DNA from: a virus
Reading direction: 5' to 3' (one strand)
UHGV virus genome: UHGV-0236300
Length of the DNA: 64,000 nucleotides
Position numbers and translations under genes: made by a program. Positions 3,001 to 19,093 of this stretch are shown here, in pieces. Every line of letters begins with the position of its first letter. The stretch's first letter is position 1. Below the pieces are notes generated by a model that saw only the letters and a list, made by a program, of their open reading frames with translations, did not search any database and was not told where the DNA came from.

Positions 3001-3899
3001 AGGTAGACTCCGCAGGGAATAAGTATGTGGCAGGTATCCAGTTAGGCATGGAAGGCTCTGGAGGCCAAGTTCAGTCATATTTCATGGTTAGCGCAAACAA
3101 CTTTGCGGTATACAACCCAGGCAATGGGACAGCAACCCTTGCTTTCGCAATCAAGAACAACCAAGCGTTCTTGAAAGACGCTTTTATAGAGAACGGCACG
3201 ATCTCTTCTGCCAAGATCGCGCAAGAAATTTCGTCAAACAACTACGATGGCAATGGGTACCACAAATACGGTTGGTATATTAACAAGAACGGGCACGCCC
3301 AGTTTATGGATGTGTGGGTGAAAGGTAACATTAACGCTAGTGCAGGTAACTTCACAGGGGCAGTTAACGCCACCAGTGGTACCTTCCGTGGGGATGTTTA
3401 TGCCAACAATGGTAGCTTTAGAGGGACCATAGATGCAACAGGAGGTACATTCCGTGGACGTGTAGAAGCTTCCGTTATCCGTGCTAACCAGTTCGAAGGT
3501 GCAATCGTTGCACACAGGACTTACGGAGATTGTGCTCCAGTATATAACTCCCAGCAAAGGGTTTGCCGTTGGAGGTGGAGATACGTAGATAACGTTTCAG
3601 GTCAGGGTAAGAACGTAACATTCTTCTTTAAACTGAATGGTACTCTTGCCAGCTCCCAGCTGAATGCATGGATAGCTGGTCATCAGATCCTTGCTGGCAA
3701 GAAGTATTTTAACGACAACAACGGCATGTGTGCGGTAGGGATAACAGGTCTGGGTGAACAAACTATAGACATTGTTATCGAGATTTACACACCGTGGTCA
3801 ACGTCTAGCGTGACAGGTGTCACAATCTCCTGTCCCACTGTGATCGTTAGTCGTTCTAACTCAAGCTTCCAGGGACCTTGGAACGAGTCTCACGACTAA
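60..3899 (+). CDS. tail tip / central fiber protein, lambda J-like host specificity protein with coiled-coil repeat insert
   Basis: RBS GGAGG upstream of ATG; segments PEAPVSVEVKQGYFAITLIPH and YYWYIRTTNAFGSSQFVE resemble lambda J FN3 region as I recall it; C-terminal GxFRG repeats; terminator follows. Confidence 0.8.
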   Translation: MPIAMIDNIVASARSSSYDWNASKAALADSLNTVTTRTLDKIFEGNKSYRSQQDRQKLLRSSAAPCSVVYGKTRTSGLLAFLEQDRDRTLHCAIVLANHPLEGIEDILIDGNPISSYGDLVSWELHNDRKTSDPFMGTHCPSWSPDMIGRGISWLRASFKFDPNKFPFGLPNVTLVKVGKKCYDPRISKEVYTNNAALVILDYLRTYLKCPDETINWESFKEAANICDEAVKNADGTSERRYTINGEFDMDEAPASIMAEMLKACGADLSYVAGKYGLLVGAYYGPATMTLSEDCVCGEVKIYPEASFDKRSNTITGRFTSPTKGYSETDFPSVFVPEWVEKDGERKIIDIDYRFVTSPYQAQRVSAIFLRRARAGRIIEVTCNMRGFKFKPGRYVTMDLPSIGIVGQEMRVLEWEFTKKGGVKVKLRQDAKEWNDATGQLPDSGDVDIPISPSGVAQPQNFRYSVLQAGEVTHGVLAWDNVGTYAQNIVQVRKNGEIIWTAQTVEQFVRVEGLTKGSYTATVVATSYKGGVSPEAYCEFNIQAPEAPVSVEVKQGYFAITLIPHSRDLASVSTQYDFWTSGMTRLPDTSDATVTSKATRMGVGSTWTSEGLQNDKIYYWYIRTTNAFGSSQFVECAARCYTSIEDLMPQIDAEFKKTETYKELMSTLDSSIEEVENRVTELNKYMDGRVDEAFQQLGDRIGAVVTETTQKFEDVNGNITALDRKLVAAQNKFTNDLNTESGRLASLIETTNKATTDLLNKKTEALDEKLVAAKGELVEQIDGVESGYLAGDKTLDGKINTQRTELDASILSTNKATVDLLNKTSETLDQKISQTNATVSKNYTTLDGKITTAKTDLNTLIANTNKATTDLLNQKTSALSEQITSARGEISTNKQAIKDLDGKLTSTKTALDATISDTNKATVDLINGTASAIRQELAVAKQEIIDDVGDVSELRAAVATTSKAVTDLEGKVNAQWGTKIQVDSAGNKYVAGIQLGMEGSGGQVQSYFMVSANNFAVYNPGNGTATLAFAIKNNQAFLKDAFIENGTISSAKIAQEISSNNYDGNGYHKYGWYINKNGHAQFMDVWVKGNINASAGNFTGAVNATSGTFRGDVYANNGSFRGTIDATGGTFRGRVEASVIRANQFEGAIVAHRTYGDCAPVYNSQQRVCRWRWRYVDNVSGQGKNVTFFFKLNGTLASSQLNAWIAGHQILAGKKYFNDNNGMCAVGITGLGEQTIDIVIEIYTPWSTSSVTGVTISCPTVIVSRSNSSFQGPWNESHD
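2310..2880 (+). repeat. four in-frame tandem repeats (about 155-185 nt) encoding TNKATxDLLNxKT coiled-coil units
   Basis: ACCAA(T/C)AAAGC units at about 2310, 2496, 2649 and 2811. Confidence 0.7.
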
Positions 3900-3935: not shown

Positions 3936-4004
3936 GCTCAGATTGACTATTGTTACAAAATTTGGTAAAATACCTTGTAGAGATTTTCATACCGGAGGAG
4001 TGAC

Positions 4005-5495
4005 GTGGCTAAGTATGGATTGACAGAGGCTGGTTTCGTTATACCAACCCTAAATGACCTAATCGTTGAAACTAAGCAAAGCCTGATCCGTGCTTTTGGC
4101 GAAAACTTCAACGTACAAAGTAACTCAGTTGCAGATAAGCTGACCACTATTTTCAACGAGCGAGAATATCAACTTATTCTTATGGCAGCATCTGTATACG
4201 CATCACAGACGCTATATGGGGCAGAAGGTATTTACCTGGATGAGCTTCTTGGAAGACAGGGTATTTACCGAAGAGGCCGTTCTAAATCATCAGGCACCTG
4301 CCAGTTGACAATCAATACAACTGTGCCGTACAATATGATTTATGATTCCAAAACTTATACGCTGGACAGTGGCAACTTTGTTCTTAGCAACGATGTGCAG
4401 GTGGCGGGAAATCTTATTGCTCACAGAATAAACGCTCCAGACCTAAGAATTGGGAAATACAACTTTCAAATTACCAACCAGACAGACGGAAGTATCAAAA
4501 CAAAAAGTCTGGTTTTAACAGATAAGGCTCTGGACTCTTCTGATTTGCCAAGCTTTTACGGCGAGATTAAGCAATTCATTGTCGATAATACAACCCTGCT
4601 GAATGATGATTTAATTCAGATAGATATGTTGACAGGGACGTTGTGGATAGGGTACAATTCGAATCTTGATCAAGTTGGACTTAATAGCAGGGTAGATTTC
4701 AGAGTATCCCCGATTGTAGGGGAAAGAACTATCACCCTAGATGTTATCGCTAACGAGGCGGGTGAGCTGTCAAGAGAGGCAGAAACCGTGACAACAATGT
4801 CACCTACTCCCAGTGGATTTATCAAGCTTACCAACCGAGAAAGATTCAATGAGGGCAGGGATGTTGAGAAAGACTCTGAGTATCGCCTAAGAGCTTCCAG
4901 CACTAAACAGTTGACATCTAAAGCTACCCGTCCTGCAATCCTTAGCGCTGTAAGCGAGGTGAAGGGTGTTGAGAAAGTAAGAGTGTTCTCTAACAACACC
5001 GATAAAACGGATGCGAAAGGTATACCACCTTATAAGTTTCAAGTGGTGGTGTTTGGTGGTGCAACAGAGGATATCTGTCAGGCGCTGTATCAAACCATAG
5101 CTTGCACAAACAGAACTTATGGGAATATCTTCTACGATATTACCACATCAGACGGTCAGACTGAAAGGATTTATTACTCCAAGGCAAATACCTACCGCCT
5201 AGATGTAAGAATTACCTACTCAGGTGCTGCGCTTTCTACAACCGAAAAAGATGCCATTGTAGAGGCTCTTTTGCAGGTTGTTAACGGACTGGATGTTGCA
5301 GATACATTGTACAATATCCAATTGGTTGGTGCTGCATCGGCTGCTGTGTCAATAGGCAGATTTAACAGACTTGTAATTCAAGTCAAACCTGTGGGGGCCT
5401 CTGATGAAGCTTACACCACAAACGATATTGTTGCAAACATGACTGAGGTGTTTGATCTAGACGAAAGTAATATAACTTTCCAACAAACTATTTAA
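4005..5495 (+). CDS. baseplate J-like (gpJ/gp47 family) protein
   Basis: GTG start 4 nt after GGAGGAG; N-terminal pattern typical of baseplate J family; position in tail module. Confidence 0.55.
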   Translation: MAKYGLTEAGFVIPTLNDLIVETKQSLIRAFGENFNVQSNSVADKLTTIFNEREYQLILMAASVYASQTLYGAEGIYLDELLGRQGIYRRGRSKSSGTCQLTINTTVPYNMIYDSKTYTLDSGNFVLSNDVQVAGNLIAHRINAPDLRIGKYNFQITNQTDGSIKTKSLVLTDKALDSSDLPSFYGEIKQFIVDNTTLLNDDLIQIDMLTGTLWIGYNSNLDQVGLNSRVDFRVSPIVGERTITLDVIANEAGELSREAETVTTMSPTPSGFIKLTNRERFNEGRDVEKDSEYRLRASSTKQLTSKATRPAILSAVSEVKGVEKVRVFSNNTDKTDAKGIPPYKFQVVVFGGATEDICQALYQTIACTNRTYGNIFYDITTSDGQTERIYYSKANTYRLDVRITYSGAALSTTEKDAIVEALLQVVNGLDVADTLYNIQLVGAASAAVSIGRFNRLVIQVKPVGASDEAYTTNDIVANMTEVFDLDESNITFQQTI

Positions 5496-5506: not shown

Positions 5507-6193
5507 ATGGCAGAGATTAAGTCGGATGTCAACCACATCCACACTCTGCCAGATTTTGTTCAGGGAGGTCTTGATTACCTCCCTGGGGATTTTCTGGCTG
5601 AGAAGGTTAATTTAGTCACATTCTTAACCGTGTACCTTAAAAGGTTGGAGAATGTTGATAAAATGCTGGTAGGCTTGGCTGAAGGAAGATTGCTTAACAA
5701 TGCCAGCGGGAGATACCTTGACGAAGTTGGTAATCAACTTGGTATTCTTAGGAATGGTCTTTCAGACGCGGATTTTCGTGCTACGCTGATTATTCAGCAG
5801 GCAGCATCATCAAGAGGTGGTACTCGCGAAGATGTCATCTCCACCTTACGACAGTTGTTCGGAAGAGATAATTTCGATACGTGGAAAGGTGACAATTTCA
5901 GGTTTGACATAAACATTAGAAAAACTTGCTTTGACATATTGCAGTCTATCGACCAAATCTTAGATATGCTGCCATTGCCTTGTCATTTGCGTCTTACGGA
6001 GTCGCAAGGACAAGCTTTTGGTTTTGAAGGGGACTCTACAGCTCTCGGCTTTGGATCAGTGTGGGAAGAAAATCAGTTCGGGGTTGGTGGGCTGGCTACT
6101 TTGTTATATGTTCCTGACGTAAGACCTGATTGGGACACTACAACCATTTATTGTGAAAGTATTACAGTAAACGCAACTAGACAGGAGGGTTAA
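5507..6193 (+). CDS. hypothetical baseplate/tail-associated protein
   Basis: Tightly packed after baseplate J-like gene; stop overlaps next start. Confidence 0.55.
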   Translation: MAEIKSDVNHIHTLPDFVQGGLDYLPGDFLAEKVNLVTFLTVYLKRLENVDKMLVGLAEGRLLNNASGRYLDEVGNQLGILRNGLSDADFRATLIIQQAASSRGGTREDVISTLRQLFGRDNFDTWKGDNFRFDINIRKTCFDILQSIDQILDMLPLPCHLRLTESQGQAFGFEGDSTALGFGSVWEENQFGVGGLATLLYVPDVRPDWDTTTIYCESITVNATRQEG

Positions 6194-8265
6194 TGGCAAC
6201 AGCTGTTTTTAAACCTTACCGTGATTACTCTACAATGGCTGCACGGTTTCATTACCGCACAGTTCAGGATACTGCAGTTCCGGGTAGGGATTATGATCAT
6301 GTTGAGGGCGATGTAACTATCCCGGTTGGGGCAACCAGTATCGAGATCCCTGTAGAAATTGTTGACAAATTGCCAAACAGGTTGCCAAGGAGCTTCTTTA
6401 TGGAGTTTTCATCAAACTCCCAAGGGGTTATGATTGGAACACAAAGAGCGAAATGTACAATAGTTTCAGATGAGAATCTTGACAGAATATCTTGGGATAC
6501 AGTTGAGGAGAGAATGTTTCACCCAAGATACTGGGTTACAACCACACAGCAGACTGAAAGCACCTGTATTGTTGCGGATAATAACTGCTGTATTAACCGT
6601 TTAGTGTCAAGAACATATGGGGGCATGGCTGGGTGCATTTGGGAAACAGTTGACAAGTATGACCATTTCGGCATTGGATTTGATGATCACTACGAGATGA
6701 GAAACACCAAGCTTTGGTTCAGAATGTCAATAACCAATGCCAGCAACTTCTCCACCCCTGAAAAGATGATTATGACTGTAGACCTTGTTGATGGTACAAT
6801 CATCTATGTTCCTTTAGCTCAATATGCTGTCAGCATCTCAGAGGATAAGAATGTTGCAGAAATTCATATTGATTTCGAGGACTGCGTCGGGATGGACCAG
6901 AACAACAACATGATGGGTGTTGATCCTCGGCAGGTGAGAAGGATTCTAATACCACTTATGCCTAAAGATTGGGTAGGTAATAGCACAGACCCGAGAACGG
7001 AAAATGTAGAGTGTGAGTTGCGTCTAGATCTTCTTCAGCCGGACACAGGCTGGAAAATGATGCAACTTAACAATATTCAGGTGAAAGAACACGATGTTGG
7101 GATCTGCACAGCATATGACGATATGTGGAACGTATCCCCTTTAAGGGTGTTGAGCAATATCAAGCGTCTGGGCTATACAGGAACCATAAACCATTATGTT
7201 GGTATGAGCCATTATTATGACTACACATGGTCAGGAACCCAATGGTCTATAAACAAAACAGGAGCTCTAAACGCTGCAGCTTATAAATGGCATGATGATT
7301 TTATGTACAATGCCAAACGACATGACTTCGACGTTATGCAGTCTGTAAGCTTTGAGCTTTATAGCGATGCCTGTCCGTTGGAATGGACCCAGAGAGACTG
7401 GAACGATAACTATGCTAAAACAGGCTATACGCCTTGTAGTTACCTCCTGTCTCCAACCATTGAAGAGGGCATGAATTTCCTTACTGCAGTATTTAAGAAT
7501 TTTGCATCAGCCGCTATGAGAAACAACCTGCCAGTGATTATGCAGATTGGTGAACCGTGGTGGTGGTTCAATACCGATACTCGTAAGCCTTGTATTTATG
7601 ACTACCCTACAAAGCAGGCGTTTTATGATGAGACTGGTGAATATGCACTAGACATTGGGACTATTGACGATCCTAAAACTGGCGGTGTTTATGACAAGTA
7701 TGTAGCATTTTGTCGTGGTAAGCTTGGCGCTCGTATTGCAGCCATTTCAAAGGCAATAAAAGCACACGCTGCATCGGCTCAGATGACAGCTTTACTGTTT
7801 TTCCCCACTATTATGGAAACCGAGCTTACGCAAAAACTGAACCTTGCTGACCAATATAAAAAGGAAGCAGGTGCTCTTGATTTCTTCTGCACTGAGTGCT
7901 ACGATTGGGTGATGCAGGGAGGTATTGAAAAGGCAAAAGAGTCTGTAAACATACCTATCGTTAAGTTAGGTTGGAAACCGTCTGAAATACAATACCTTGC
8001 AGGGTTCGTTCCTAGCAAAGAGCTTGCTCCGGTATATGGCTACGACCCAACCAGGAATTACCAAGAATTTTTATGGAGATGTATTTGCGGAAACATGGCA
8101 ACCATAGAGTATAGATACCCTGAGGTAAAACAGTATGTGTGGGCATACCCGCAAGTAATGTCTGACAGCATCACTGTTACCGCCAGAGATTCTACTGTTC
8201 TGCATATGGGGCAGGTTGCTCTGAAAGGGTATGTAGAAGATGTTGTTCCGCCAGACTTCTCATAA
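6193..8265 (+). CDS. putative tail fiber / baseplate structural protein
   Basis: 690-aa ORF, ATG overlapping upstream stop (TAATG), RBS AGGAGGG. Confidence 0.6.
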   Translation: MATAVFKPYRDYSTMAARFHYRTVQDTAVPGRDYDHVEGDVTIPVGATSIEIPVEIVDKLPNRLPRSFFMEFSSNSQGVMIGTQRAKCTIVSDENLDRISWDTVEERMFHPRYWVTTTQQTESTCIVADNNCCINRLVSRTYGGMAGCIWETVDKYDHFGIGFDDHYEMRNTKLWFRMSITNASNFSTPEKMIMTVDLVDGTIIYVPLAQYAVSISEDKNVAEIHIDFEDCVGMDQNNNMMGVDPRQVRRILIPLMPKDWVGNSTDPRTENVECELRLDLLQPDTGWKMMQLNNIQVKEHDVGICTAYDDMWNVSPLRVLSNIKRLGYTGTINHYVGMSHYYDYTWSGTQWSINKTGALNAAAYKWHDDFMYNAKRHDFDVMQSVSFELYSDACPLEWTQRDWNDNYAKTGYTPCSYLLSPTIEEGMNFLTAVFKNFASAAMRNNLPVIMQIGEPWWWFNTDTRKPCIYDYPTKQAFYDETGEYALDIGTIDDPKTGGVYDKYVAFCRGKLGARIAAISKAIKAHAASAQMTALLFFPTIMETELTQKLNLADQYKKEAGALDFFCTECYDWVMQGGIEKAKESVNIPIVKLGWKPSEIQYLAGFVPSKELAPVYGYDPTRNYQEFLWRCICGNMATIEYRYPEVKQYVWAYPQVMSDSITVTARDSTVLHMGQVALKGYVEDVVPPDFS

Positions 8266-8277
8266 TCAGGAGATAAA

Positions 8278-9318
8278 ATGTCAAAACCTAGTTTTCCATT
8301 AGAGATTTGGGCAGAGGAGGATCAGGTTCTGCCTAACACCCACAGACAGAACAGGCTACGCCCGATTGATGATTTGTGGAGAAAAGGTTGGGATCTTGGT
8401 CAAAAGCCGTCATGTGAAGAACTTAACTATATTTTCAATATGCTCGGGACTTGGGCAAAATATATTGCTGACGAGCAGATCCCTGCCCAAGAGGGCCGTT
8501 ATCTGGTACGTGATAATAACCTGAGCGATCTTTTGAACATTCCTGTTGCCCGTAGAAACCTTGGGATTATCACTAAGGAAGAGGCAGACGCCAGGTATGT
8601 AAAAGTTACAGGCGATACAATGACAGGCCCCTTAGGTTTGCAGCGTATCAACTTTAAAGCTGCCGAGACAGATAAGGCTTGGATAGAGACAACTATTGGT
8701 CCAGATAAGACAACTCTCGACTTTGGGTTAAGTGATAACACTGGGGCGTTTGATGATGGTGGCACATCTACAGTAGATGCGTTTCGTTGGAGATTCCAGC
8801 CAACTCAGCCAGACATTAATCCAGAGTTCACTTTGATGTACCTGAACGCGATCACGGCTAACCGTGCGCTGTTGAAAGTGGTAGGTAATGTTGAAGTTGT
8901 CGATAACATGCGGTGTAACAACCTTACCATCAGCAGCACAGCAACATTCACCAACTGTAATGTGGCTAGTCAGTTGACAGCTGGGTCCGTATATGTTAAT
9001 GGCGGTGCAAGTTGTGACAGTATGGTTGTAAGAAGCCAGCATTGTGTTGTCGGTAACAGAAATGTGGTGCGCTCTGTGAATGGAGTGACGGCTAACGGTA
9101 ACGGAGATGTAACGATCACCATCCCGCAGACAGGGGTACAGGATATCAGAATCGGTGCAAGACTTGTTGATGGTGTTTCTGAATCTCCAGTTCGCAACGG
9201 CTACGTTGTCACAGGTTGGCATTTTGGTGATAAAAAAGAGATGCGTGGTTCAACCTACTGGGCAGGACCTTTACAAAAACTTGTAAATGGTCAATGGATC
9301 ACTGTTAATTATGCGTAG
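8278..9318 (+). CDS. tail fiber protein (paralog A)
   Basis: RBS AGGAG; N-terminus and C-terminus (LVNGQWITVNYA) shared with 10334-11377, central part divergent; followed by Tfa-like chaperone. Confidence 0.65.
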   Translation: MSKPSFPLEIWAEEDQVLPNTHRQNRLRPIDDLWRKGWDLGQKPSCEELNYIFNMLGTWAKYIADEQIPAQEGRYLVRDNNLSDLLNIPVARRNLGIITKEEADARYVKVTGDTMTGPLGLQRINFKAAETDKAWIETTIGPDKTTLDFGLSDNTGAFDDGGTSTVDAFRWRFQPTQPDINPEFTLMYLNAITANRALLKVVGNVEVVDNMRCNNLTISSTATFTNCNVASQLTAGSVYVNGGASCDSMVVRSQHCVVGNRNVVRSVNGVTANGNGDVTITIPQTGVQDIRIGARLVDGVSESPVRNGYVVTGWHFGDKKEMRGSTYWAGPLQKLVNGQWITVNYA

Positions 9319-9332
9319 ATCGGAGGACTAGC

Positions 9333-9917
9333 ATGAAAATACTTCAAGAGTTTAAACTTTACCAACCGGGATCTGGCGAATACTACACCAACAAGGAGAC
9401 CAAGGAGCTGACTCCTCAGGAGGTTGAGGATTACACAGCATACACTGGATATTTTTTACGTAATGATGATGGCGATTGGTATGTGCAATCACGAACACTG
9501 CGACAAGAAAATCCCGGCTGTATCTTCTTACTTGTTGACGAGAAGGGTATTCTTAAGACATCTACAGAAGAACCTGATGCCTTGTGGCCTGCTCCAGGTC
9601 TTCGTGTGGTTATCGCCAAAAAAGAAGAGGTACCAGAAAACATTATGCTCCACCACGACGCTTTGCGTTTAGTTGGTGATGAATTTGTCACAGACAATGA
9701 ATTCTTTGTTCAACAGGCAGAGGGTGTCATAGAGACAGAACTTGCTTGGGCTACTGCTAGAATTGGTGCCTATCAAGACATGATTGACCTTGAATACGAT
9801 CTTACTGATGACCAAAAACGCAACATCAGAGATTTGAAAATGTACAGGGTAAAACTTCTTGAAATAGATACATCTAAAGCCCCTGACATTTTCTTCCCGG
9901 AACGACCTACCCTCTAA
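9333..9917 (+). CDS. tail fiber assembly chaperone (Tfa-like)
   Basis: C-terminal LKMYRVKLLEIDTSKAPDIFFPERP matches the conserved Tfa C-terminal signature; immediately downstream of fiber gene. Confidence 0.6.
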   Translation: MKILQEFKLYQPGSGEYYTNKETKELTPQEVEDYTAYTGYFLRNDDGDWYVQSRTLRQENPGCIFLLVDEKGILKTSTEEPDALWPAPGLRVVIAKKEEVPENIMLHHDALRLVGDEFVTDNEFFVQQAEGVIETELAWATARIGAYQDMIDLEYDLTDDQKRNIRDLKMYRVKLLEIDTSKAPDIFFPERPTL

Positions 9918-9928
9918 GAGGAGGTGTT

Positions 9929-10243
9929 GTGGAGTTGGATTTGGCGGCATTGTACGGTATCTGCATGGGTACCGTTGTCCCGATCTGTGTATGGGCTTTC
10001 AACCAGTGGCACACCAAATGGAAAGGCATTTCCAAGAGGTTGGATGAGCTGGAGAAAGACCTCATTTTAGTGAAAAATAGCATGGTTACAAAAGATAGAC
10101 TTGATTCCATTATCGAGACCCGGTTAAGTAAGCTAGAGGCCGATATTAACGACCTTAAGCAAGATGTCAGGACAGATGTCTCCGGTATCCGAGCTGATGT
10201 ACAAAAGATTTTGCACATGCTTGTAGAGCATAGTAAAAGGTAA
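9929..10243 (+). CDS. hypothetical protein with N-terminal hydrophobic segment and coiled coil
   Basis: GTG start after AGAGGAGG; hydrophobic N-terminus then heptad-like region. Confidence 0.5.
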   Translation: MELDLAALYGICMGTVVPICVWAFNQWHTKWKGISKRLDELEKDLILVKNSMVTKDRLDSIIETRLSKLEADINDLKQDVRTDVSGIRADVQKILHMLVEHSKR

Positions 10244-10333
10244 ACAAAGGTAAGAACGGTAAGGATGCCGTTCTTGCATTTTGTTCTCTAAAGTGTTAAA
10301 ATAGTCCTTAAGGAATTTTCTCAGGAGAATGTG

Positions 10334-11377
10334 ATGACTAAACCAGTTATCCCTCTCGATATTTGGGCCAATCAGGATGTTGTGCTTGAAAATACAGGAG
10401 AGTTGAACAAGTCTCAACCGAACAAAGAAGAGAGATTGAAAGGTTGGGATATGACACAAAGGATAGCATGTGAAGTTGTTAACTTTGAACTCCACATGCT
10501 CTCTGCGTGGCTAAAGCATTTAACAGAAGATGTTGTCCCTGGATGGGATAATAGATTCTTAAGGGTCACTAATAATCTGGCAGACGTTCCAGACAAAGCT
10601 GCTGCACGTAAAGTCCTCAATGTATACTCGCCTGAAGAAATGGATGACCTGTATGTTGACAAGACTGGGGACACAATGACCCAGACTCAAACTTTGGGTC
10701 TTCAAAGAATCGAGTTTGCATCCGCGTCAACAGACAATGCAGCGATATACACCACCATAACTCCAGACAAAACGATGATGGATTTCTGGATTATGGACAA
10801 CATCGGCGGCGCTGACGGCACAGACCTTGATGATCCTTCTCACCAAATAGACGGTTTCCGTTGGAGATTTCAACCTTCTGGTGGGCAGCCTGTGTTTTCG
10901 GCTATGAAGCTTAATGCTATAACTGCCAACCGTGCAAGACTGGCTATCCAAGGGAATCTTGAATGCAATGATGCAAAAAGCTCCTCTGCAAATGCTAATG
11001 CGGTAACGATACCAAGAGCCACTGTTAATGGACAACAATCCTGCGGCAGCGCTCAAATAGGTGGAAGAGTGGATTGTAACGATAACACCGCCAGGGGTCA
11101 ATATGCAACAGTTGGTGGGAGAAACGTGGTCCGCAGGGTAAATGGTAGTAGCGCAGATAGCAGTGGTAACCTTACTATTCCTATGCCTAGTAGGGGTGTT
11201 GAAGATGTAAGGATAGCAAACCGTTTCAGAACCACCTACAGAGAATCAAGAGTATACCCTGGGCATGTAATGTGCTCCGGCAATTACGCCTATAAACACC
11301 CGTATCAAGGCGACTATTGGACTGGTGCCATTCAAAAATTTGTAAACGGTCAATGGATCACTATATCTTATGCTTAA
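10334..11377 (+). CDS. tail fiber protein (paralog B)
   Basis: ATG 6 nt after AGGAG (in-frame GTG at 10331 is too close to RBS); paralog of 8278-9318. Confidence 0.65.
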   Translation: MTKPVIPLDIWANQDVVLENTGELNKSQPNKEERLKGWDMTQRIACEVVNFELHMLSAWLKHLTEDVVPGWDNRFLRVTNNLADVPDKAAARKVLNVYSPEEMDDLYVDKTGDTMTQTQTLGLQRIEFASASTDNAAIYTTITPDKTMMDFWIMDNIGGADGTDLDDPSHQIDGFRWRFQPSGGQPVFSAMKLNAITANRARLAIQGNLECNDAKSSSANANAVTIPRATVNGQQSCGSAQIGGRVDCNDNTARGQYATVGGRNVVRRVNGSSADSSGNLTIPMPSRGVEDVRIANRFRTTYRESRVYPGHVMCSGNYAYKHPYQGDYWTGAIQKFVNGQWITISYA

Positions 11378-11386
11378 AGAGGGTAA

Positions 11387-11653
11387 ATGAAATTAACTCA
11401 GTTTTTATGGGGGTTGGTTGCGGCATCGGATGACCCTACGAAAGTGTCCCAATCTAAGCTATGGTCAAACATAGGCATGGCAGTGATGACTGGGGTGTTT
11501 ATTCATATGGGGTACAATGATACGCTTCCTGAATGGTATGCGTGGATATACGCACCTTCAGTAGCCTGCCCCCAGCTTATTAGCAAATTCATCTCGCTCC
11601 GGTGGGGTTGCCAGCACCCTGACCACGTTAAAAACGAAGAGCAAAAAGCTTAA
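11387..11653 (+). CDS. hypothetical protein
   Basis: RBS AGAGGG; co-directional packing between fiber genes. Confidence 0.5.
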   Translation: MKLTQFLWGLVAASDDPTKVSQSKLWSNIGMAVMTGVFIHMGYNDTLPEWYAWIYAPSVACPQLISKFISLRWGCQHPDHVKNEEQKA

Positions 11654-11662
11654 GGAGAAATC

Positions 11663-13408
11663 ATGGCGCAAGACATGACAAGCTTCGAGCAGGCGGTAGA
11701 TCAAGTAATTGTTGATTCTGAACGTTTGCACTTGGTTGTCAACGGTAACGCTGTGGATGAAGTTGTCGTAGAGGATGGGACCACTATCCCTACGGTACGA
11801 AAAGCCATGCTTGACAACCTTTATTTTAAAACGCCACCGATCCCTTGGGCGTATGGTGCATCCACAACAGTTTTTAACCAGCTGTATGAGTTTAAAGGAG
11901 ATACAGGCCCTCAGTGGTGGTACGCTCCAGCAGCGTCAAAATCTAACCCGGTTAGGATGCCAGCAGATCCTTCACAATCTCCGAACTGGAGATTATACAC
12001 CGACTCTGCAGTAATGGCAAAATACTACGCAAAACTTAACAGCCCAAGGTTCGAAGGTGACCCGAGAGTACCTACACCTCCAATGGATGATAAGTCCGAG
12101 TCTATAGCAAACACAGAGTTTGTTGTTGACTATGTGGATAGCATATTTAAAGCCATAGAGGGGATGAAAGTTACTGTAGGATCTTTGGTGGTAAAAGGTC
12201 TTACAGAACTTGCTAACACTATAGTTGGGGGTACCCTTACCTTACACGGACCTGTTAATGGAGCAGATTCTACTGCACGCTTCAGGAACCTAATCCTTAC
12301 GGCAAATACTTCTACACTGACTTTTGCGTGGAGCGATCCTAAGCATGCAGACTGGAGGAGCACAGAGCTGCAACCTCATGAAGTATCAACTCACAGAGTT
12401 ATAGCTGACACTATAACTTCTGGGAAACCAGTGGCTAATAACAACGATGTGCATTTTGATGGTCTAGGTAATAACTTTTTTGACTACGTGTACATTCGCG
12501 GTAATGCCATGAAGGCAGCCACCGAACCGACATTGCAGGTTGATGGGACCACTAGGGTTAAGAACCTTGAGGTGACAGGCACCGTTACAGGGATAACCTA
12601 CTCTGTAGATGGCACCATGATCTACCCTAGCTATATTGAAAGCACGGGAGATGCACTGATCAATGGAGATTTAGAGGTTGGAGGATCTATAGTCATTCGT
12701 GGCACAGCATCTGTCCAGAACATATCTTTAAATACTCTGAGGGTGAATGAGCGTGCCACTTTTGAAGGAGAAGGACTTACAGCCAACAAAGGTGTAATTA
12801 CCGAGCTGACAACCACCACTTTAACTGCAACAACTGCAAACTCTGAAAACTGCAACGTTACCAGAAACTTGCAGGTAAATGGAGATGTTAGTTTAAACGC
12901 AGCAGGGACTGGCACCACCCACCTTCACAACCTTGAAATATCAGGTACAGTGACTGGGTGGCTGCCAGACTTCTCTAATGTCAACTTTGTCTGTAATGGC
13001 ATTAACTCTAGTGGCAAGATAACCACCTCTCAAGAAATTGAAGCTGGTAAAACTATTACTGCCCCTGCTTTCCATGCAGGGAAGGTGGAGTTTGACTTAG
13101 AGGAGGCTGACGCATCTAGTGGGACATGGACACCTAACGGGCAGGCCAATATGTATGTTGTCCACGCGAAAGGGGATTTTACAATAGGGCAATGGCCTGG
13201 AACATCGGCTGAAGATAAACCTTACCCGTTCACTGCAATCATCTATGTCATTCAGGATGCTGTAGGCCACAACGTGACTTTACACGATAAATATGCCATA
13301 CTGTCGGCTACTCCTGTTATTAACAACAAAGCCAACAGTGTCACCTTGCTACAATTGACATATTGTGGTGTTGGTGATATTGTGGATGTGGTTATTGCAC
13401 AACGTTAA
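11663..13408 (+). CDS. tail fiber / virion structural protein
   Basis: RBS AAGGAG; Thr/Gly/Asn-rich beta-type composition typical of fibers; terminator follows. Confidence 0.6.
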   Translation: MAQDMTSFEQAVDQVIVDSERLHLVVNGNAVDEVVVEDGTTIPTVRKAMLDNLYFKTPPIPWAYGASTTVFNQLYEFKGDTGPQWWYAPAASKSNPVRMPADPSQSPNWRLYTDSAVMAKYYAKLNSPRFEGDPRVPTPPMDDKSESIANTEFVVDYVDSIFKAIEGMKVTVGSLVVKGLTELANTIVGGTLTLHGPVNGADSTARFRNLILTANTSTLTFAWSDPKHADWRSTELQPHEVSTHRVIADTITSGKPVANNNDVHFDGLGNNFFDYVYIRGNAMKAATEPTLQVDGTTRVKNLEVTGTVTGITYSVDGTMIYPSYIESTGDALINGDLEVGGSIVIRGTASVQNISLNTLRVNERATFEGEGLTANKGVITELTTTTLTATTANSENCNVTRNLQVNGDVSLNAAGTGTTHLHNLEISGTVTGWLPDFSNVNFVCNGINSSGKITTSQEIEAGKTITAPAFHAGKVEFDLEEADASSGTWTPNGQANMYVVHAKGDFTIGQWPGTSAEDKPYPFTAIIYVIQDAVGHNVTLHDKYAILSATPVINNKANSVTLLQLTYCGVGDIVDVVIAQR

Positions 13409-13413
13409 TATAT

Positions 13414-13445
13414 CTGACCGCTCCTGACGGGGCGGTTTTCTTATC
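13414..13445 (+). terminator. rho-independent terminator
   Basis: ACCGCTCC-TGAC-GGGGCGGT hairpin followed by TTTTCTT. Confidence 0.7.
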
Positions 13446-13456
13446 TGGAGAACACA

Positions 13457-16400
13457 ATGCTTCCAATCCCTTTGCTAAAACTTGGTCGTCATTTCCTCGA
13501 TAAGAGGGGTGGAGTTAAGGAACTTGCTGTTCTGTCATACCCAATAGACAACAGTGACGGTACAAGCACTACAGTAGCTTATGTAAATAGCTTAGCTATA
13601 CTTTTTGACGATGGTCAGCTTAATATTACTGGCTATAACAAGTTCGGGGAGTGTCGCACTGGGGATCGTAACCCTATAAACTACCCGAGCGAGACGGCCT
13701 GGAATGTTGATCATGTGTGGAGAGCAGACCGTGCGTTTGTGATCCGGACTTTTGATAACCAGTTTTTCTACATCGGCTGCACTGCAGGTCTTATCGGATC
13801 CACTGCGGCAGGTGGTAACGATGTTTGCGTAAACGAGTGGACACCTCTTCCGGAACAGATTGTTCAAGGATTGCACCTTGACACCCACCCAGAGCGCCTT
13901 ATCGAGGTAATGGGCGGTATTAACAACACTGTTTGGGTTATGGCAGAGGCTGAGGGTGACGGCATTTTACACCTGTACGGGTCTGGTAACAACACCTACG
14001 GATCTTTACATGTAGATAAGAACCAGCATGCAACCCCTGTAAAGATTGGTGAAACATCGGAAAATCCTGAAACAGGCCCTTGGAAAAACCCAAGTATCAA
14101 CTGCGAGGTGCATGACAACTCTGTTATTTTCGGTGGGCCCAGAGGTTTTTGGATTGCTGGATACGACTTTCTGAGAAACAACAGTAGAAACGACCTTGTT
14201 TGGCCCCCTGCTCAGATTACTCGCAACGATTTGAAAGGCATTCCTGCAGATGAGGAGTGGAAAGGATTCATGTGTGGTCCGAACGGGGCGATAATTGCAA
14301 CGCAGAGGATGCACAAGCCTAATGATCAGCAGCTTGTTAACGTATTCTACGGGCAAGATGTCTGGGGAGATGATACATGGCGTTCCTTAAATATTACCTA
14401 CACCCATGAAGTAATAATGGCTCGTGGGTACGGAACAAGTGGCATTTTCTTCAATAATGGCACTAAGCAGTATCGCGGATTCTCTCGCAACTTATGTAAT
14501 GATATTGGCGCACAATCTGCAAACAATAACCCTAGGGCCAATTTTATCCACTATCAAGCTCTTGCCACAGCCAAATACGTTGAGCAACGCCTCCCAGTTA
14601 GCTGGACAGAGAGTGTTTATTTCCAGGGCATTCACAGAGAAGGTTTTTTAGGTACCTTTACTGTTGTTAATGGTAAACTTTGGTGGTCAGGCATCCCAAG
14701 GGGAAGTTTTGCAGGCTCTAACAACCTGTTTGGCGGCAGACTTAATAGTCAGGGGTTCACAGAGGTTCCTGAGAATTGGTATAAAAATGTCCCAGTAGAC
14801 AGTTGGGGTGTTGATGATATTTTTGACGTTAACGGTGTTAGCAGTGTTAGCAATATTTACATTGGTGACACGGTCAAGATGAAATTGAAGCCTCAGCCAG
14901 AGGGGGCTACGTTCATTATTGACAAGATTGAACTGGTAAATGCTGCGGGTACGGTTGTTACAGATGCAAATTACCAATTCTCCACCAACTGGAACCACGG
15001 CGGGGCCAACGAAGTTGTTGTTACTCAGTATAACAGGAATGTTAACAGACGTGGCCTGTACTCTGTAAAAATAACCTATCATGACAAACATGGCACAGGA
15101 AGAACTCACACGACAAGGACTTTGAACTGGAACACCATAGTTCCTGCGTATCCTTCTGACGGTAAGTGGCATACCGTTGGTAGAAACAAGCAGTTCCATG
15201 TTAACGATACTGTATACTTCGGGCTGAATGGGACTCAGCCTGCGGTAGAAGGAGATACATCGTATATGGTCCGACTCCACAGAATGGATGCTGGATCAGT
15301 CACCTATGATGTTACCCAAGAGATTTATGATCAGAGACGAAATACCTACAACAACTTAGTGCAGACACAGGCCGTATGGGAGTTCAACCCTAACGGCAGA
15401 GGCGGTAAAATGTTGCAGGTTAACGAGCAAAACGGAACGTCGTTGACTGTCCACGAACACCCAGACCCTTGGCCTGATCCTGGAAAACCTCACCCAGGTG
15501 CTCGTACACTGAAAATTGTCAGCCATGATGCAGGATATTTCGGAATACGCTGGGAAGCCACAGTAAGATATGCCGACGGGACAACAAACAACATAGGGAT
15601 TACACTTGGAGGCACCAGTGAAGATAGCTCTCTGAAAATTGCCTACACCCCTAGGGGCATCTCTATTGATAATATGGATGTTGTTCGCAATGGTTACGGC
15701 GATGTGAATGTCAAAGTTACTCTTGGCGAACATCTTGGTGGGGAAAGGATCATCATGTATGCCTTTGATCATGACCCGCGAACCAATGGAACTTATGCAA
15801 ATCAGGCATGGAGTTACCTGATAAATGCACCTGAGCCGAATACTAAAGAATTCTACTACGGTATGAAGCGAGATGTATGCAAGAAAACAGGAACACATGA
15901 CTGGATTGCTATCTGCGTTAAAGATGAGCGCACAGCTTGGGATGAGCCTGTTAATAGATGGTTCATAGGTATTCCTACCAGAAGCGATAAGTATATCGCA
16001 GAATACATTGTGTGCATGGGCGGTACCAACCTAAATATGTGTTGGAACGAAGATGCAAACAAATACTCTGATTATGACTATATGAGAGATTACTCTTGTA
16101 ATCAGTGGTTTAACCAATCGACAGGGTACCCTCCACGTCAGGCGAGAGTAAATCCTGCAATCTTTACAGATACGCAGGTTTTCTTGACAAAACAGGCTAA
16201 CGAGGTTCAGACCTTCAAGAACAAATACGACCCTAACAAGTGGTTTTATAACTGTTATGGCGCATTTTTCTGGGGTCCTGGCGAACTGCCTAATGGAGGA
16301 TCTTGCTTTGAGGCTGCAACTTACGCCAGTGACAGGTTCATGGGGCAGGTTAAGAAGTACAAGATAATCCCAGGGCCTGAAACTTTAGGCAACGCTGTTG

Positions 16401-19093
16401 ACCCATATATCATCATGACAGCACTGAGATCGAACATGGACGGAACATCCATATCTATGCAAGTTCCAGTAACAAACGGGTACAAACGTGTTGTGATGAT
16501 CATTAAGTGCGACTTAATAGGTAAGCAAGTTCTTGCAGAAAACGGAACCTCAACACATCTATTCGAGACTGCTCTGCATTATCAGTTTGCTGATTCACCT
16601 TTTGCAGGGGATAAGAGAATATCTGATACAGACAATACTCGATGCAAGAAATTTATGCTTGGTGGTGGATGGTGGTGGTATGAATTTGATTTAACAGACA
16701 AATTCACTGACACGTCTAAAGTGGTGACAGGGCTTCGTCTAGATCTTGGCGAAAACATGCACAAAAGTGTTTGTGATGGCACCTACGGTGACCCAACAAT
16801 CTACTTAAAGTATGTCTCTTTTGAGCATCCGGAAGATGTTGTTTACGGTCCAAAACTGAGATTGTTTGGCAGTTGGATTGCAAAAGACAGGGTAGGCATG
16901 GGTAAAAAGGTAAGAGGGTTCTTGGTTGATGCAGGAACAGAAGACATGCTGGTTAATGCAGTGTGGCCTGAATTACCTGGGACTCAGTGGGATAACTCAG
17001 CCAAGTCCATAAACTGGTTCAACATTCACAGAGCTATGTGGACAACTAACTGCTACCTGTGGAAAGAGTTGAATGACGGCGCTTTCGGGTTTACAGGTGG
17101 CAGAAGAATGGCAATCATTTGCTGGACAACGCTGCAAAGATGTTATGACCATGACTACGAGATTGGGGGTAGGGCATGGAAAAATATTAGGGATAGAATC
17201 ATAACTAACTTCGCAGACCCTAATGGTGGTGGAGCGTATGGCTTCGACTGCAGCAGGCTCATCCATTTGAACGGGTCCTCTGCATATAAGAAAGAGGGTT
17301 ACTCTGGATCTATGATTGAGTGGGGCCTGGTGAAAGATGCTCGCGTATTGATGGGTCAACAACTTGCTGCTGCAATAGGACCTAACGCAGTGCAGTCTGT
17401 TAAACCAGCGTGGTTCGATATCCCAATATGGTCATCTGGAACACCAGGAACTGCGGCAATCAACCCTACCACTGGGGATCTGGAAATCTCTTGGGAGGAC
17501 TTGAAGCAGGTTGGTGGCTGGGATAAGACAGGCTACCAGGTACAATGGTGGAGATCTGACGGATCGTTAGCGGCTGATGAGTTTGTTAAGGACAATTTCT
17601 ACACTATGTCCTCTGCAAAAGCACAGCAATTGTTTGGTCAGGCAACTCCGTCAACGATCACCATGTCCATGTGCTGTAAAGACAACAGGACTGGAGCCCT
17701 GGGACCAAGGGTTGCTAAAGTTTTCTCAGGTATTAAATGGAATCTCCCTGTTCAAAGTGTTTCATGGAAGCAAATAGGTGATAACAAGCTGCTGGTTACC
17801 CCTGCTTGTCAGTTCAACGCAACTCTTAACGTTGATCCTGCTGTTGCGGCAAACTCAGCTAAAGCTTCTGACTTCTCTGTGTCTAACACTGCTATGGCAG
17901 ATGTGAGGAAGATTGACACACTGAACGCCAGAATTACCTGTAAAAACACTTATGGCACATTCCAGATCATCAACAACTTCACAGATGCTGATTCTAAGGT
18001 AGTGAGGACAGCAAGCCAGACTATGCAGTTGGGCACTCTGGCATACTCTGCCCTGATCACTGAACAATCTCCTACTCTTCAGGGTGGGGGTGTTGGTAAG
18101 TTGATCACAACACCTGTGTGGAAGCCAAATGAGTGGGTTGTGTTTGATTTGACCGTAGACTTCTCCAGTGACAATAACTGGACATGGGTAAGGAATTGCT
18201 TGTCACAACTGATGGGTGGTCCAAGCTCCGTTAGTGATAGCCACGACTCCACTGACCCGAGTGTGTTCCAGGTAGGTAAAACTCACCCAGAGACTGGAGA
18301 AACGTTGCCTGACAGGAAGTATGCTTTGGTTTGCATCTCTTACGGAAAAGCAGATGTCACCTTCTCAGGGACACACGCTTATAACGGAACTTACAACTTC
18401 TCAAGGAAGTACAGTCTCAAGGCAGGTAACATTATAGATGAAGTTGGTGCGTTGTATAACCCAGGTAACGGCATAGGGATTGTGGGTGGTAAACTGCAGA
18501 TGCAGGAACCTTCTATTACCCCTTCCAATGTGTCTGGGATTAGAAAGACTTGGGAAAGCAGTAATACCAACATTGCAACAGTGGATGCTACCACAGGGCT
18601 GGTAACATTTAAAGCTCCTGGTAATGTCACTATAAAGTTTGTAGCTACTGATGATGCAGGTCGCAAAACGTCTTCAACATCTTTTACTGTCAAACAGATG
18701 ACACCACAGTGGAGAATGTGGATAGGTACAGCAACAAACGGGGCATACCCTAATCCGGCAGGGACTTCTGGTATGAAGACTTTTGCTACAAGCAAGCCGA
18801 TGGAGTACGGCAGCGGTCCTAAGGTAGGGCAGATGGTGTACTTTGGTGCATATATTCCTGAAATTATAGGGCTTCCGAGAAGTCAGCTTCAGTTGCTGTT
18901 TGGGGCTGGTGTTGACGATCTTGCCACTTTCGGGTATAGCGACAACATCGATGCTGCAAGGAGTTCAGGATGGGTAGGGTTCAGAATGGAGTCTGGAAAG
19001 GAAGGCAGGATTCTAGGGACAGCCTCTATAGGTGTTATGTTCCCTGGTGACCAGCAGTATCGTCTGGGAGCCTACGCGACTTTCTCTCTTTAA
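13457..19093 (+). CDS. giant virion structural protein (1878 aa) with C-terminal Ig-like (Big_2-like) domain
   Basis: Single uninterrupted ORF; C-terminal segment NIATVDATTGLVTFKAPGNVTIKFVATDDAGRKTSSTSFTV resembles bacterial Ig-like group 2 domains; last gene of late module. Confidence 0.7.
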   Translation: MLPIPLLKLGRHFLDKRGGVKELAVLSYPIDNSDGTSTTVAYVNSLAILFDDGQLNITGYNKFGECRTGDRNPINYPSETAWNVDHVWRADRAFVIRTFDNQFFYIGCTAGLIGSTAAGGNDVCVNEWTPLPEQIVQGLHLDTHPERLIEVMGGINNTVWVMAEAEGDGILHLYGSGNNTYGSLHVDKNQHATPVKIGETSENPETGPWKNPSINCEVHDNSVIFGGPRGFWIAGYDFLRNNSRNDLVWPPAQITRNDLKGIPADEEWKGFMCGPNGAIIATQRMHKPNDQQLVNVFYGQDVWGDDTWRSLNITYTHEVIMARGYGTSGIFFNNGTKQYRGFSRNLCNDIGAQSANNNPRANFIHYQALATAKYVEQRLPVSWTESVYFQGIHREGFLGTFTVVNGKLWWSGIPRGSFAGSNNLFGGRLNSQGFTEVPENWYKNVPVDSWGVDDIFDVNGVSSVSNIYIGDTVKMKLKPQPEGATFIIDKIELVNAAGTVVTDANYQFSTNWNHGGANEVVVTQYNRNVNRRGLYSVKITYHDKHGTGRTHTTRTLNWNTIVPAYPSDGKWHTVGRNKQFHVNDTVYFGLNGTQPAVEGDTSYMVRLHRMDAGSVTYDVTQEIYDQRRNTYNNLVQTQAVWEFNPNGRGGKMLQVNEQNGTSLTVHEHPDPWPDPGKPHPGARTLKIVSHDAGYFGIRWEATVRYADGTTNNIGITLGGTSEDSSLKIAYTPRGISIDNMDVVRNGYGDVNVKVTLGEHLGGERIIMYAFDHDPRTNGTYANQAWSYLINAPEPNTKEFYYGMKRDVCKKTGTHDWIAICVKDERTAWDEPVNRWFIGIPTRSDKYIAEYIVCMGGTNLNMCWNEDANKYSDYDYMRDYSCNQWFNQSTGYPPRQARVNPAIFTDTQVFLTKQANEVQTFKNKYDPNKWFYNCYGAFFWGPGELPNGGSCFEAATYASDRFMGQVKKYKIIPGPETLGNAVDPYIIMTALRSNMDGTSISMQVPVTNGYKRVVMIIKCDLIGKQVLAENGTSTHLFETALHYQFADSPFAGDKRISDTDNTRCKKFMLGGGWWWYEFDLTDKFTDTSKVVTGLRLDLGENMHKSVCDGTYGDPTIYLKYVSFEHPEDVVYGPKLRLFGSWIAKDRVGMGKKVRGFLVDAGTEDMLVNAVWPELPGTQWDNSAKSINWFNIHRAMWTTNCYLWKELNDGAFGFTGGRRMAIICWTTLQRCYDHDYEIGGRAWKNIRDRIITNFADPNGGGAYGFDCSRLIHLNGSSAYKKEGYSGSMIEWGLVKDARVLMGQQLAAAIGPNAVQSVKPAWFDIPIWSSGTPGTAAINPTTGDLEISWEDLKQVGGWDKTGYQVQWWRSDGSLAADEFVKDNFYTMSSAKAQQLFGQATPSTITMSMCCKDNRTGALGPRVAKVFSGIKWNLPVQSVSWKQIGDNKLLVTPACQFNATLNVDPAVAANSAKASDFSVSNTAMADVRKIDTLNARITCKNTYGTFQIINNFTDADSKVVRTASQTMQLGTLAYSALITEQSPTLQGGGVGKLITTPVWKPNEWVVFDLTVDFSSDNNWTWVRNCLSQLMGGPSSVSDSHDSTDPSVFQVGKTHPETGETLPDRKYALVCISYGKADVTFSGTHAYNGTYNFSRKYSLKAGNIIDEVGALYNPGNGIGIVGGKLQMQEPSITPSNVSGIRKTWESSNTNIATVDATTGLVTFKAPGNVTIKFVATDDAGRKTSSTSFTVKQMTPQWRMWIGTATNGAYPNPAGTSGMKTFATSKPMEYGSGPKVGQMVYFGAYIPEIIGLPRSQLQLLFGAGVDDLATFGYSDNIDAARSSGWVGFRMESGKEGRILGTASIGVMFPGDQQYRLGAYATFSL

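Follow-up and report, generated by a model that had tools for sequence, protein, structure and literature searches.

The 64,000-nucleotide stretch of the virus genome UHGV-0236300 (the window) carries on its plus strand two related genes for short tail fibers (STFs), with a gene for a tail fiber assembly chaperone, Tfa, between them. We refer to the fibers as STF1 (346 amino acids; 8278–9318; the counterpart of gp33 of phage rV5) and STF2 (347 amino acids; 10334–11377; rV5 gp30); Tfa (194 amino acids; 9333–9917; rV5 gp32) directly follows STF1. Comparison with characterized phages establishes by homology that the locus encodes two Mu-type short fibers, predicted to dock on the baseplate wedge, and one Tfa, and we put at roughly 85% the probability that these are two paralogous Vequintavirus short tail fibers with a single chaperone of the Mu GpU type, operating in the manner proposed below.

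The gene pair and its single chaperone have already been described in print, first in 2013 and again in 2021. Kropinski et al. (2013; PMC3606486) reported that rV5 gp30 (347 amino acids) and the similarly sized gp33 are 42.3% identical and spoke of "two chemotypes of LPS" (lipopolysaccharide), and Maffei et al. (2021; PMC8594841, S5C–D Fig) described in the BASEL phages two paralogous short tail fibers and a chaperone, related by homology to the phi92-like locus and, in the end, to Mu GpS/GpU. In rV5 (gp33/gp32/gp30) and in the BASEL locus, the genes and their order are those found here, and STF1 shares 98.8% identity with its rV5 counterpart. The finding as stated consequently adds nothing new, and our data are incremental; what we did not find stated in the literature on this locus is the replacement of a membrane-protein gene, m157, by STF2, the putative dedicated terminator and promoter of STF2, the region-by-region divergence of the two fibers, and an exchange of tips between them in one metagenomic lineage.

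The window belongs to a Vequintavirus, an Escherichia coli myophage of the rV5/FV3 type. Bases 8000–13500 are 99.9% identical to phage vB_EcoM-ECP26 (ECP26) and 90%–99% identical to more than 110 sequenced Vequintavirus genomes, and the order of genes (gp34-like fiber, STF1, Tfa, m104, STF2, m88, gp28-like fiber) is that of WalterGehring, ECP26, and rV5, the rV5 gene numbers having been checked against the rV5 reference record. The open reading frames (ORFs) that a first-pass annotation had placed at 8278–9318, 9333–9917, 10334–11377, 11387–11653, 11663–13408, and 13457–19093 are all present on the plus strand. It should be noted that 16–21 GenBank records named "Campylobacter phage" (MG0656xx, e.g., MG065635 and MG065662; host given as C. 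jejuni) are also ∼94.5% identical to the locus; probably these host labels are incorrect, or contaminating E. coli was the true source of the phages.

STF1 and STF2 Align from End to End

The two fibers can be aligned over their entire length, with 153 identities in 356 positions (43%, E = 1e-94), and the 342-position profile phrog_4465 is matched from position 1 to position 342 both by STF1 residues 1–346 (E = 4.5e-171) and by STF2 residues 1–347 (E = 1.8e-163). The paralogy is therefore not limited to motifs, and on the strength of these alignments STF1 and STF2 are true paralogs. This agrees with the published accounts (PMC3606486; PMC8594841) and with the first-pass annotation, which had called the two genes duplicated tail fiber genes; the possibility it had raised against itself, that the proteins are unrelated outside short motifs, is contradicted by the full-length alignment.

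Its description of conserved termini flanking divergent centers, on the other hand, did not survive the region-by-region comparison. Identity is 43% over alignment columns 1–60, 41% over 61–130, 53% over 131–205, 27% over 206–265, and 46% from column 266 to the end; the best-conserved part is the central shaft (residues 96–205, 56% identical between the paralogs), and strong divergence is confined to ∼50 residues (approximately 205–255), the segment 206–282 as a whole being 32% identical. The extreme C terminus is almost shared by both fibers and reads QK(L/F)VNGQWIT(V/I)(N/S)YA. Recent gene conversion between the two genes in the window was considered and rejected, given that third-position identity is low throughout except in the last ∼20 codons (0.58). 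A Pfam search identified no domain in STF1 or STF2, nor in the small proteins m88 and m157 described below.

Two-Fiber Lineages and Selection

Two STF places are found in every Vequintavirus listed, and one in every other genus. STF1 is 95%–100% identical in 116 phage records, as is STF2. With phage WalterGehring as the reference, the ratio of non-synonymous to synonymous change (dN/dS) is 0.017 for STF1 and 0.070 for STF2, values that indicate strong purifying selection on both fiber genes, with STF2 gathering ∼5 times more non-synonymous change than STF1. Two further metagenomic lineages also keep the two-fiber architecture: L013–L016, with 88%–89% (STF1) and 77.5% (STF2) identity to the window, and the more distant L011, with 73% and 47%, respectively. 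L011 (positions 116–3254; European Nucleotide Archive metagenome contig ERZ15185469 NODE_327) represents an uncultured rV5-like lineage of which there is no isolate in the phage collection (best match 45.7%).

Neighbor-joining trees with 200 bootstrap replicates were built with all three two-fiber lineages included. The STF1 proteins are monophyletic in 200/200 replicates and the STF2 proteins in 184/200, and all six sequences group together in 124/200, which lends moderate support to a duplication giving rise to STF2 in the stem of the two-fiber group. We found no outside donor closer to STF2: the best non-Vequintavirus match is 39% identical in the phage collection and at most 44% among 5.8 billion proteins.

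The N-Terminal Docking Domains Are Paralog Specific

By phmmer, STF1 residues 1–108 (E = 1.5e-19) and STF2 residues 1–82 (E = 2.3e-8) match the short tail fiber of phage phiTE (PDB: 9CUY; 9CUY_c). In the phiTE fiber, residues 3–92 make up the joint for binding to the Wedge 1 protein, with one trimer per wedge (PMC11972413). In phi92, the single homolog, gp147 ("fiber III"), forms six downward-pointing fibers on the C-terminal domain of the wedge protein gp145 and has been proposed to mediate irreversible adsorption (PMC13450770). In the window, the probable docking partner of the short fibers, by analogy, is the J-like baseplate wedge protein, the rV5 gp36 homolog encoded at 4005–5495 on the plus strand (Pfam Baseplate_J, E = 4e-9; annotated as baseplate wedge subunit in relatives); its gene has the same length as the wedge gene of single-fiber genera.

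The N-terminal domains of STF1 and STF2 are 38%–39% identical, depending on the alignment, whereas that of STF1 is 54%–59% identical to the single-copy fibers of other genera. STF1 and all single-copy fibers, that of phiTE included, invariably carry two motifs, P-I-D-D-L and G-x-K-P, that are missing from STF2. STF2-type N termini form a clade of their own in 199/200 bootstrap replicates and are grouped with STF1 in 0/200; long-branch attraction could explain this topology, but the existence of a distinct, conserved STF2-type sequence stands regardless. A common attachment scaffold, as suggested in the first-pass annotation, is not supported: the domain is among the most paralog-specific parts of the two proteins.

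Conserved, Distinct, and Exchanged Tips

STF1 residues 286–343 match the tail fiber S of phage Mu (PDB: 5YVQ_A) by phmmer (E = 1.4e-6), the corresponding tip domain of Mu S being at residues ∼440–501. AlphaFold2 monomer models of both fibers are of low confidence (predicted local distance difference test, pLDDT, 60.5 for STF1 and 59.0 for STF2), as expected for trimeric fibers: the STF1 model recovers only the Mu S match in Foldseek (5yvq_A, E = 6.5e-7, probability 1.00), and the STF2 model has no significant match in the PDB (best 9cuy_a, E = 0.44). Sequence comparison, too, gives no significant Mu S (5YVQ) match for STF2, and a Mu-like tip can be proposed for it solely through its alignment with the STF1 tip (one gap, 44% identity). 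A published RBPseg model of the short-fiber class TC1 has a Mu-like C terminus and a likely need for Tfa; one TC1 model was fitted to the 7–9.5 Å maps of two Vequintaviruses, Bas49 and Bas54 (PMC12143355).

The STF1 tip is closer to the single-copy fibers of other genera than to STF2. It resembles the fiber tips of phi92-like, Av-05-like, and Seunavirus phages, with 54%–56% identity to those of Av-05, SEW6S, and W22, the last a phi92-like phage (61% by BLAST). In turn, conservation of the STF2 tip between the window and L013 reaches 89% and extends to a motif of its own, SGNYAYKHPYQGDYW. With only 44% identity to the STF1 tip and yet such conservation across lineages, the STF2 tip is a selected, distinct tip type, and two receptor specificities are plausible in the lineage of the window.

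In L011, the situation is different: the STF2 tip is 81% identical to the STF1 tip of the same genome, compared with 37%–48% for the remainder of the proteins, and the two tips pair in 200/200 bootstrap replicates. To judge from these values, the similarity is the product of tip exchange between the paralogs, and the exchange is not recent, because third-position identity is 45%–55%. That L011 retains two genes despite having the same tips argues that the difference in the N-terminal domain and shaft is important by itself. The first-pass annotation had proposed a comparison with relatives for module swapping; there is none within the sequenced genus, whose short-fiber paralogs have been described as lacking considerable allelic variation (PMC8594841).

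A Single Chaperone Next to STF1

Tfa residues 121–192 match Pfam Caudo_TAP (PF02413) with 45.5 bits, well above the gathering score of 22.1 (E = 1e-11), and the protein belongs to phrog_136 (E = 9.7e-37). Its gene starts 14 nt after STF1; STF2 is instead followed by m88, which is unrelated to Tfa (BLASTP E = 16). There is no second Tfa homolog in the 64-kb window, and among the matches listed each Vequintavirus genome has exactly one matching place. On these points, the earlier statements that only the first fiber has a Tfa-like chaperone and that the 88-residue protein is unrelated to it are borne out. Tfas of the Mu type bind the distal tip of the fiber through a variable N-terminal domain and trimerize through a conserved C-terminal helical domain, and Mu Tfa stays on the virion (PMC9608196). 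Tfa varies together with the STF1-type tip: that of the window most resembles its counterparts in W22, SEW6S, and Av-05, the phages with STF1-like tips, which therefore points to STF1-Tfa as the ancestral cognate pair.

STF2 Occupies the Slot of a Membrane-Protein Gene and Has Its Own Putative Regulatory Elements

In Avunavirus, Seunavirus, Mydovirus, Henunavirus, and Certrevirus, the gene order is single STF, Tfa, m104, m157, m88, gp28-like fiber, where m157 is a 157-residue polytopic membrane protein of the other Vequintavirinae genera. STF2 occupies the exact slot of m157. A tblastn search of the window for a remnant of m157 detected none, the best match (E = 0.04) lying at an unrelated position, and the 107 phage records that match m157 apparently include no Vequintavirus; in counts by host or organism, there are 0 rV5-like "Campylobacter" records and 16 Escherichia records, versus ∼98 Vequintavirus records.

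The genes on either side of STF2 are the first and the last of this membrane-protein cassette. The first, m104 (104 amino acids; 9929–10243, plus strand; rV5 gp31; phrog_5345, E = 1.1e-48), had been overlooked in the first-pass annotation; it encodes a protein with one N-terminal hydrophobic helix (hydropathy peak at residues 5–23) and a coiled coil, and it directly follows Tfa in all Vequintavirinae genera examined. The last, m88 (11387–11653, plus strand; rV5 gp29; phrog_1322, E = 2.7e-32), encodes an 88-residue putative membrane protein, and its homologs precede the phiTE-gp241-like fiber gene in all genera examined. Because STF2 sits in the m157 slot and m88 is present in the single-fiber genera, m88 is an ancestral neighbor and not a partner of STF2, contrary to the pairing of the two that had been implied; it belongs to a cassette common to all single-fiber genera. 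Elsewhere, the cassette lies at L003 5638–6701, L005 5650–6719, and L010 6728–7805, and the Vequintavirus version is without the middle gene. The m88 homolog of L011 is longer, with 117–131 amino acids. The cassette proteins match only PHROGs without an assigned function (phrog_7451 in the case of m157), and a role in lysis or as holins was dropped as an idea for the three membrane proteins when family searches gave no evidence for it.

A spacer of 90 bp separates m104 from STF2; the single-fiber genera have a 4-base overlap of m104 with m157. Within the spacer, a terminator-like hairpin (10250–10277, plus strand) of 12 pairs is followed by the T-rich tail ATTTTGTTCT. Its predicted RNA fold has an energy of -22.3 kcal/mol (z = -5.9; 0/200 shuffles as stable), and the pairing of the stem is kept through compensatory changes in four lineages. 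Downstream of it, 31 nt 5′ of the STF2 start codon, lies the late-promoter-like motif TGTTAAAATA (10294–10303, plus strand). The sequence TG(T/C)TAAAATA does not vary among the window, WalterGehring, L013, and L011, and it matches the reported late-gene motif of rV5, TggTAaAAtA (PMC3606486). TGKTAAAATA has only two occurrences in the 64 kb, before STF2 and before the J-like wedge gene; the latter copy, TGGTAAAATA (3963–3972, plus strand), matches the rV5 late motif and probably marks where transcription begins for a unit with STF1, Tfa, and m104 among its genes. A second terminator-like hairpin of 9 pairs (6 of them G-C) and a T-run (13416–13437, plus strand) closes the STF2-m88-gp28 unit. We infer that STF2 has its own conserved terminator hairpin upstream and its own late promoter. 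In the STF2 ORF, a GTG at 10331 lies one codon 5′ of the annotated ATG.

How Two Fibers May Share One Baseplate

In the arrangement that we favor, each fiber would be a trimer whose N-terminal ∼95 residues dock on the J-like wedge protein, as in the solved structure of phiTE and the fitted model of phi92 gp147. The C-terminal ∼60 residues would form a Mu GpS-like tip that folds with the help of Tfa and subsequently engages the LPS core in the irreversible step of adsorption. STF1 and Tfa would constitute the ancestral pair, common to all single-fiber relatives; a duplication in the stem lineage of Vequintavirus is the most likely origin of STF2. The single Tfa most likely serves both fibers, and both would be components of the virion, most likely differing in their mode or place of docking and, in the lineage of the window, in the variant of the LPS core that they bind.

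Several observations weigh against this arrangement. The text of the rV5 report lists gp30, gp32, and gp33 as detected, but its mass spectrometry table (Additional file 5, 19 loci) contains neither those loci nor matching peptides (PMC3606486). Low-resolution cryo-electron microscopy (cryo-EM) of two Vequintaviruses shows one short-fiber density per wedge region (PMC12143355), and phiTE and phi92 have only six short-fiber sites, the wedge protein here being no longer than theirs. As to the receptor, the published genetic work suggests that a single LPS-core requirement is common to these phages, all tested Vequintavirinae needing the same outer-core glucose (waaG) on K-12 (PMC8594841; PMC7229145), and the L011 paralogs bear nearly the same tip. 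The action of Tfa on STF2 is presumed. STF2 by itself has neither a significant Mu S match nor, in its low-confidence monomer model, a significant fold match. Monophyly of STF1 and STF2, found in 124/200 replicates, falls to 0/200 for the N-terminal domain alone; STF2 or its N terminus may have come from an unsampled lineage, for which pattern a long-branch artifact would be an equally good reason.

A minority chance falls to a scheme in which both paralogs bind essentially the same LPS-core receptor, in line with the shared glucose requirement, and occupy non-equivalent or alternating baseplate positions set by their N termini, differences between the tips being secondary. The N-terminal domain is indeed the most consistently paralog-specific part of the fibers, in its isolated clade as in its missing motifs; in L011, the N termini differ (37% identity) while the tips are shared, and the lengths of the two proteins are nearly equal. 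This scheme has difficulty, however, with the STF2 tip of the window and L013 lineages, whose conservation speaks for a selected, different binding surface, with a wedge protein that shows no extra docking module, and with the one short-fiber density in the 7–9.5 Å maps. That density, seen in both Bas49 and Bas54, the six sites of phiTE and phi92, and a wedge protein of the same length as in single-fiber genera would all be expected if STF1 and STF2 homotrimers vied for the same six wedge sites, giving mosaic virions or sub-populations with a broader LPS-core range, a form of bet-hedging; the putative separate promoter of STF2 would permit a different dosage, and the tips are distinct in the lineage of the window. 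We nonetheless find such competition rather doubtful, in that a diverged yet conserved STF2 N terminus is unexpected if there is one identical site and L011 keeps both genes in spite of their shared tip.

Co-assembly of STF1 and STF2 into heterotrimers, with the one chaperone acting on the shared C-terminal strand, would fit the near-identical lengths, the well-conserved shaft, the almost common extreme C terminus, and the single Tfa, but is very unlikely. The genes appear to lie in separate transcription units, the N termini (39%) and the segment 206–282 (32%) are too different for a regular threefold fiber, and the five-fold faster evolution of STF2 is unexpected for an obligate partner; moreover, we know of no precedent for heterotrimeric fibers of the Mu type. 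Even less can be said for STF2 being a decaying or non-structural duplicate, or resembling STF1 in short motifs only. Its lack of an adjacent chaperone, its faster rate, and the missing gp30 peptides in the rV5 table could be cited in favor, yet the full-length alignment (E = 1e-94), the intact ORF conserved at 95%–100% in 116 genomes, a dN/dS of 0.070, retention in two further divergent lineages, and a conserved dedicated promoter motif effectively refute it on grounds of conservation and selection.

We tentatively suggest that the pair may represent two anchors rather than two heads sharing an anchor: the STF2 N terminus would be an old, conserved, and separate docking class that places a second set of short fibers at a non-equivalent baseplate position or on another fiber, with one chaperone for both and with tips exchangeable by recombination, as in L011. 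If this is true, rV5-like phages carry two separate sets of short fibers for LPS binding. These phages are often isolated, infect a broad range of hosts, and serve in cocktails for therapy and biocontrol, and their irreversible adsorption step is set by the short fibers. The residual interest of the locus lies in how a six-fiber baseplate accommodates two fiber species with different docking domains and one Tfa, and the synteny, promoter, selection, and tip-exchange data sharpen this question of two fibers on one baseplate.

Comparison with Known Short-Fiber Systems

The closest structurally characterized systems are phi92 gp147/gp148 (Justusliebigvirus; PMC13450770) and phiTE gp236/gp237 (Certrevirus; PMC11972413), which have the homologous wedge-docking N terminus and the same succession of baseplate genes, fiber, and Tfa, and whose fibers point downward with a proposed role in irreversible adsorption. 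Unlike Vequintavirus, phi92 and phiTE each have one fiber gene. The phiTE fiber also differs in being flagellotropic and 554 amino acids long, with a coiled coil and immunoglobulin (Ig)-like domains. The phi92-like fibers can be aligned with STF1 only at the two ends (38% coverage), their tip being 56%–61% identical to that of STF1.

With Mu GpS/GpU (5YVQ), the locus shares a homologous C-terminal tip in STF1 and a Caudo_TAP chaperone encoded immediately downstream, whereas the N terminus and shaft of Mu S differ from those of STF1 and STF2. Mu alternates two fiber/chaperone sets (S/U and S′/U′) by DNA inversion; here, by comparison, the two fibers are co-encoded, there is one chaperone, and there is no invertible segment. 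The likeness to T4 gp12 is a functional analogy only, based on the same proposed role of short baseplate fibers that bind the LPS core irreversibly. T4 gp12 uses the chaperone gp57A, not Tfa, and is folded under the baseplate, whereas the phiTE and phi92 homologs are pre-deployed and point downward. HHpred similarity of rV5 gp30 and gp33 to T4 gp12 has been reported (PMC3606486) and was not reproduced in this analysis, in which no T4 gp12 chain appeared among the phmmer matches (E ≤ 1) or the Foldseek matches of either fiber.

Neighboring Fiber Genes

Immediately upstream of STF1, the gene at 6193–8265 (plus strand) encodes a 690-residue lateral fiber with an N4 gp65-like TIM barrel, corresponding to rV5 gp34 (Pfam TIM-barrel_NCTSP, E = 6.7e-80; NCTSP_N, E = 1e-12). 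This class is the NGR-glycan-binding fiber of the literature (PMC8594841; bioRxiv 10.64898/2026.04.02.716166). The protein comprises Calx-beta, NCTSP_N, and TIM-barrel_NCTSP domains, and it is the fiber linked in the literature to the N4 glycan receptor. Its gene is found in Avunavirus, and there is none at the corresponding position in Seunavirus, Mydovirus, or Certrevirus.

Downstream of m88, the gene at 11663–13408 (plus strand) encodes a 581-residue, phiTE gp241-like fiber (rV5 gp28; phrog_4549, E = 5.2e-251), whose orthologs in L011 and L013 bear the Pfam domains Phage_phiTE_241_N/C. It is followed at 13457–19093 (plus strand) by the gene for a 1878-residue lateral fiber with Ig-like domains (rV5 gp27), annotated in relatives as an Ig-like or intimin-domain lateral fiber. 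In the window, this gene is a single intact ORF; the ECP26 record (L002 14457–20093) annotates two coding sequences of 617 and 1227 amino acids in its place, a discrepancy that points to a frameshift or a sequencing error in the ECP26 entry.

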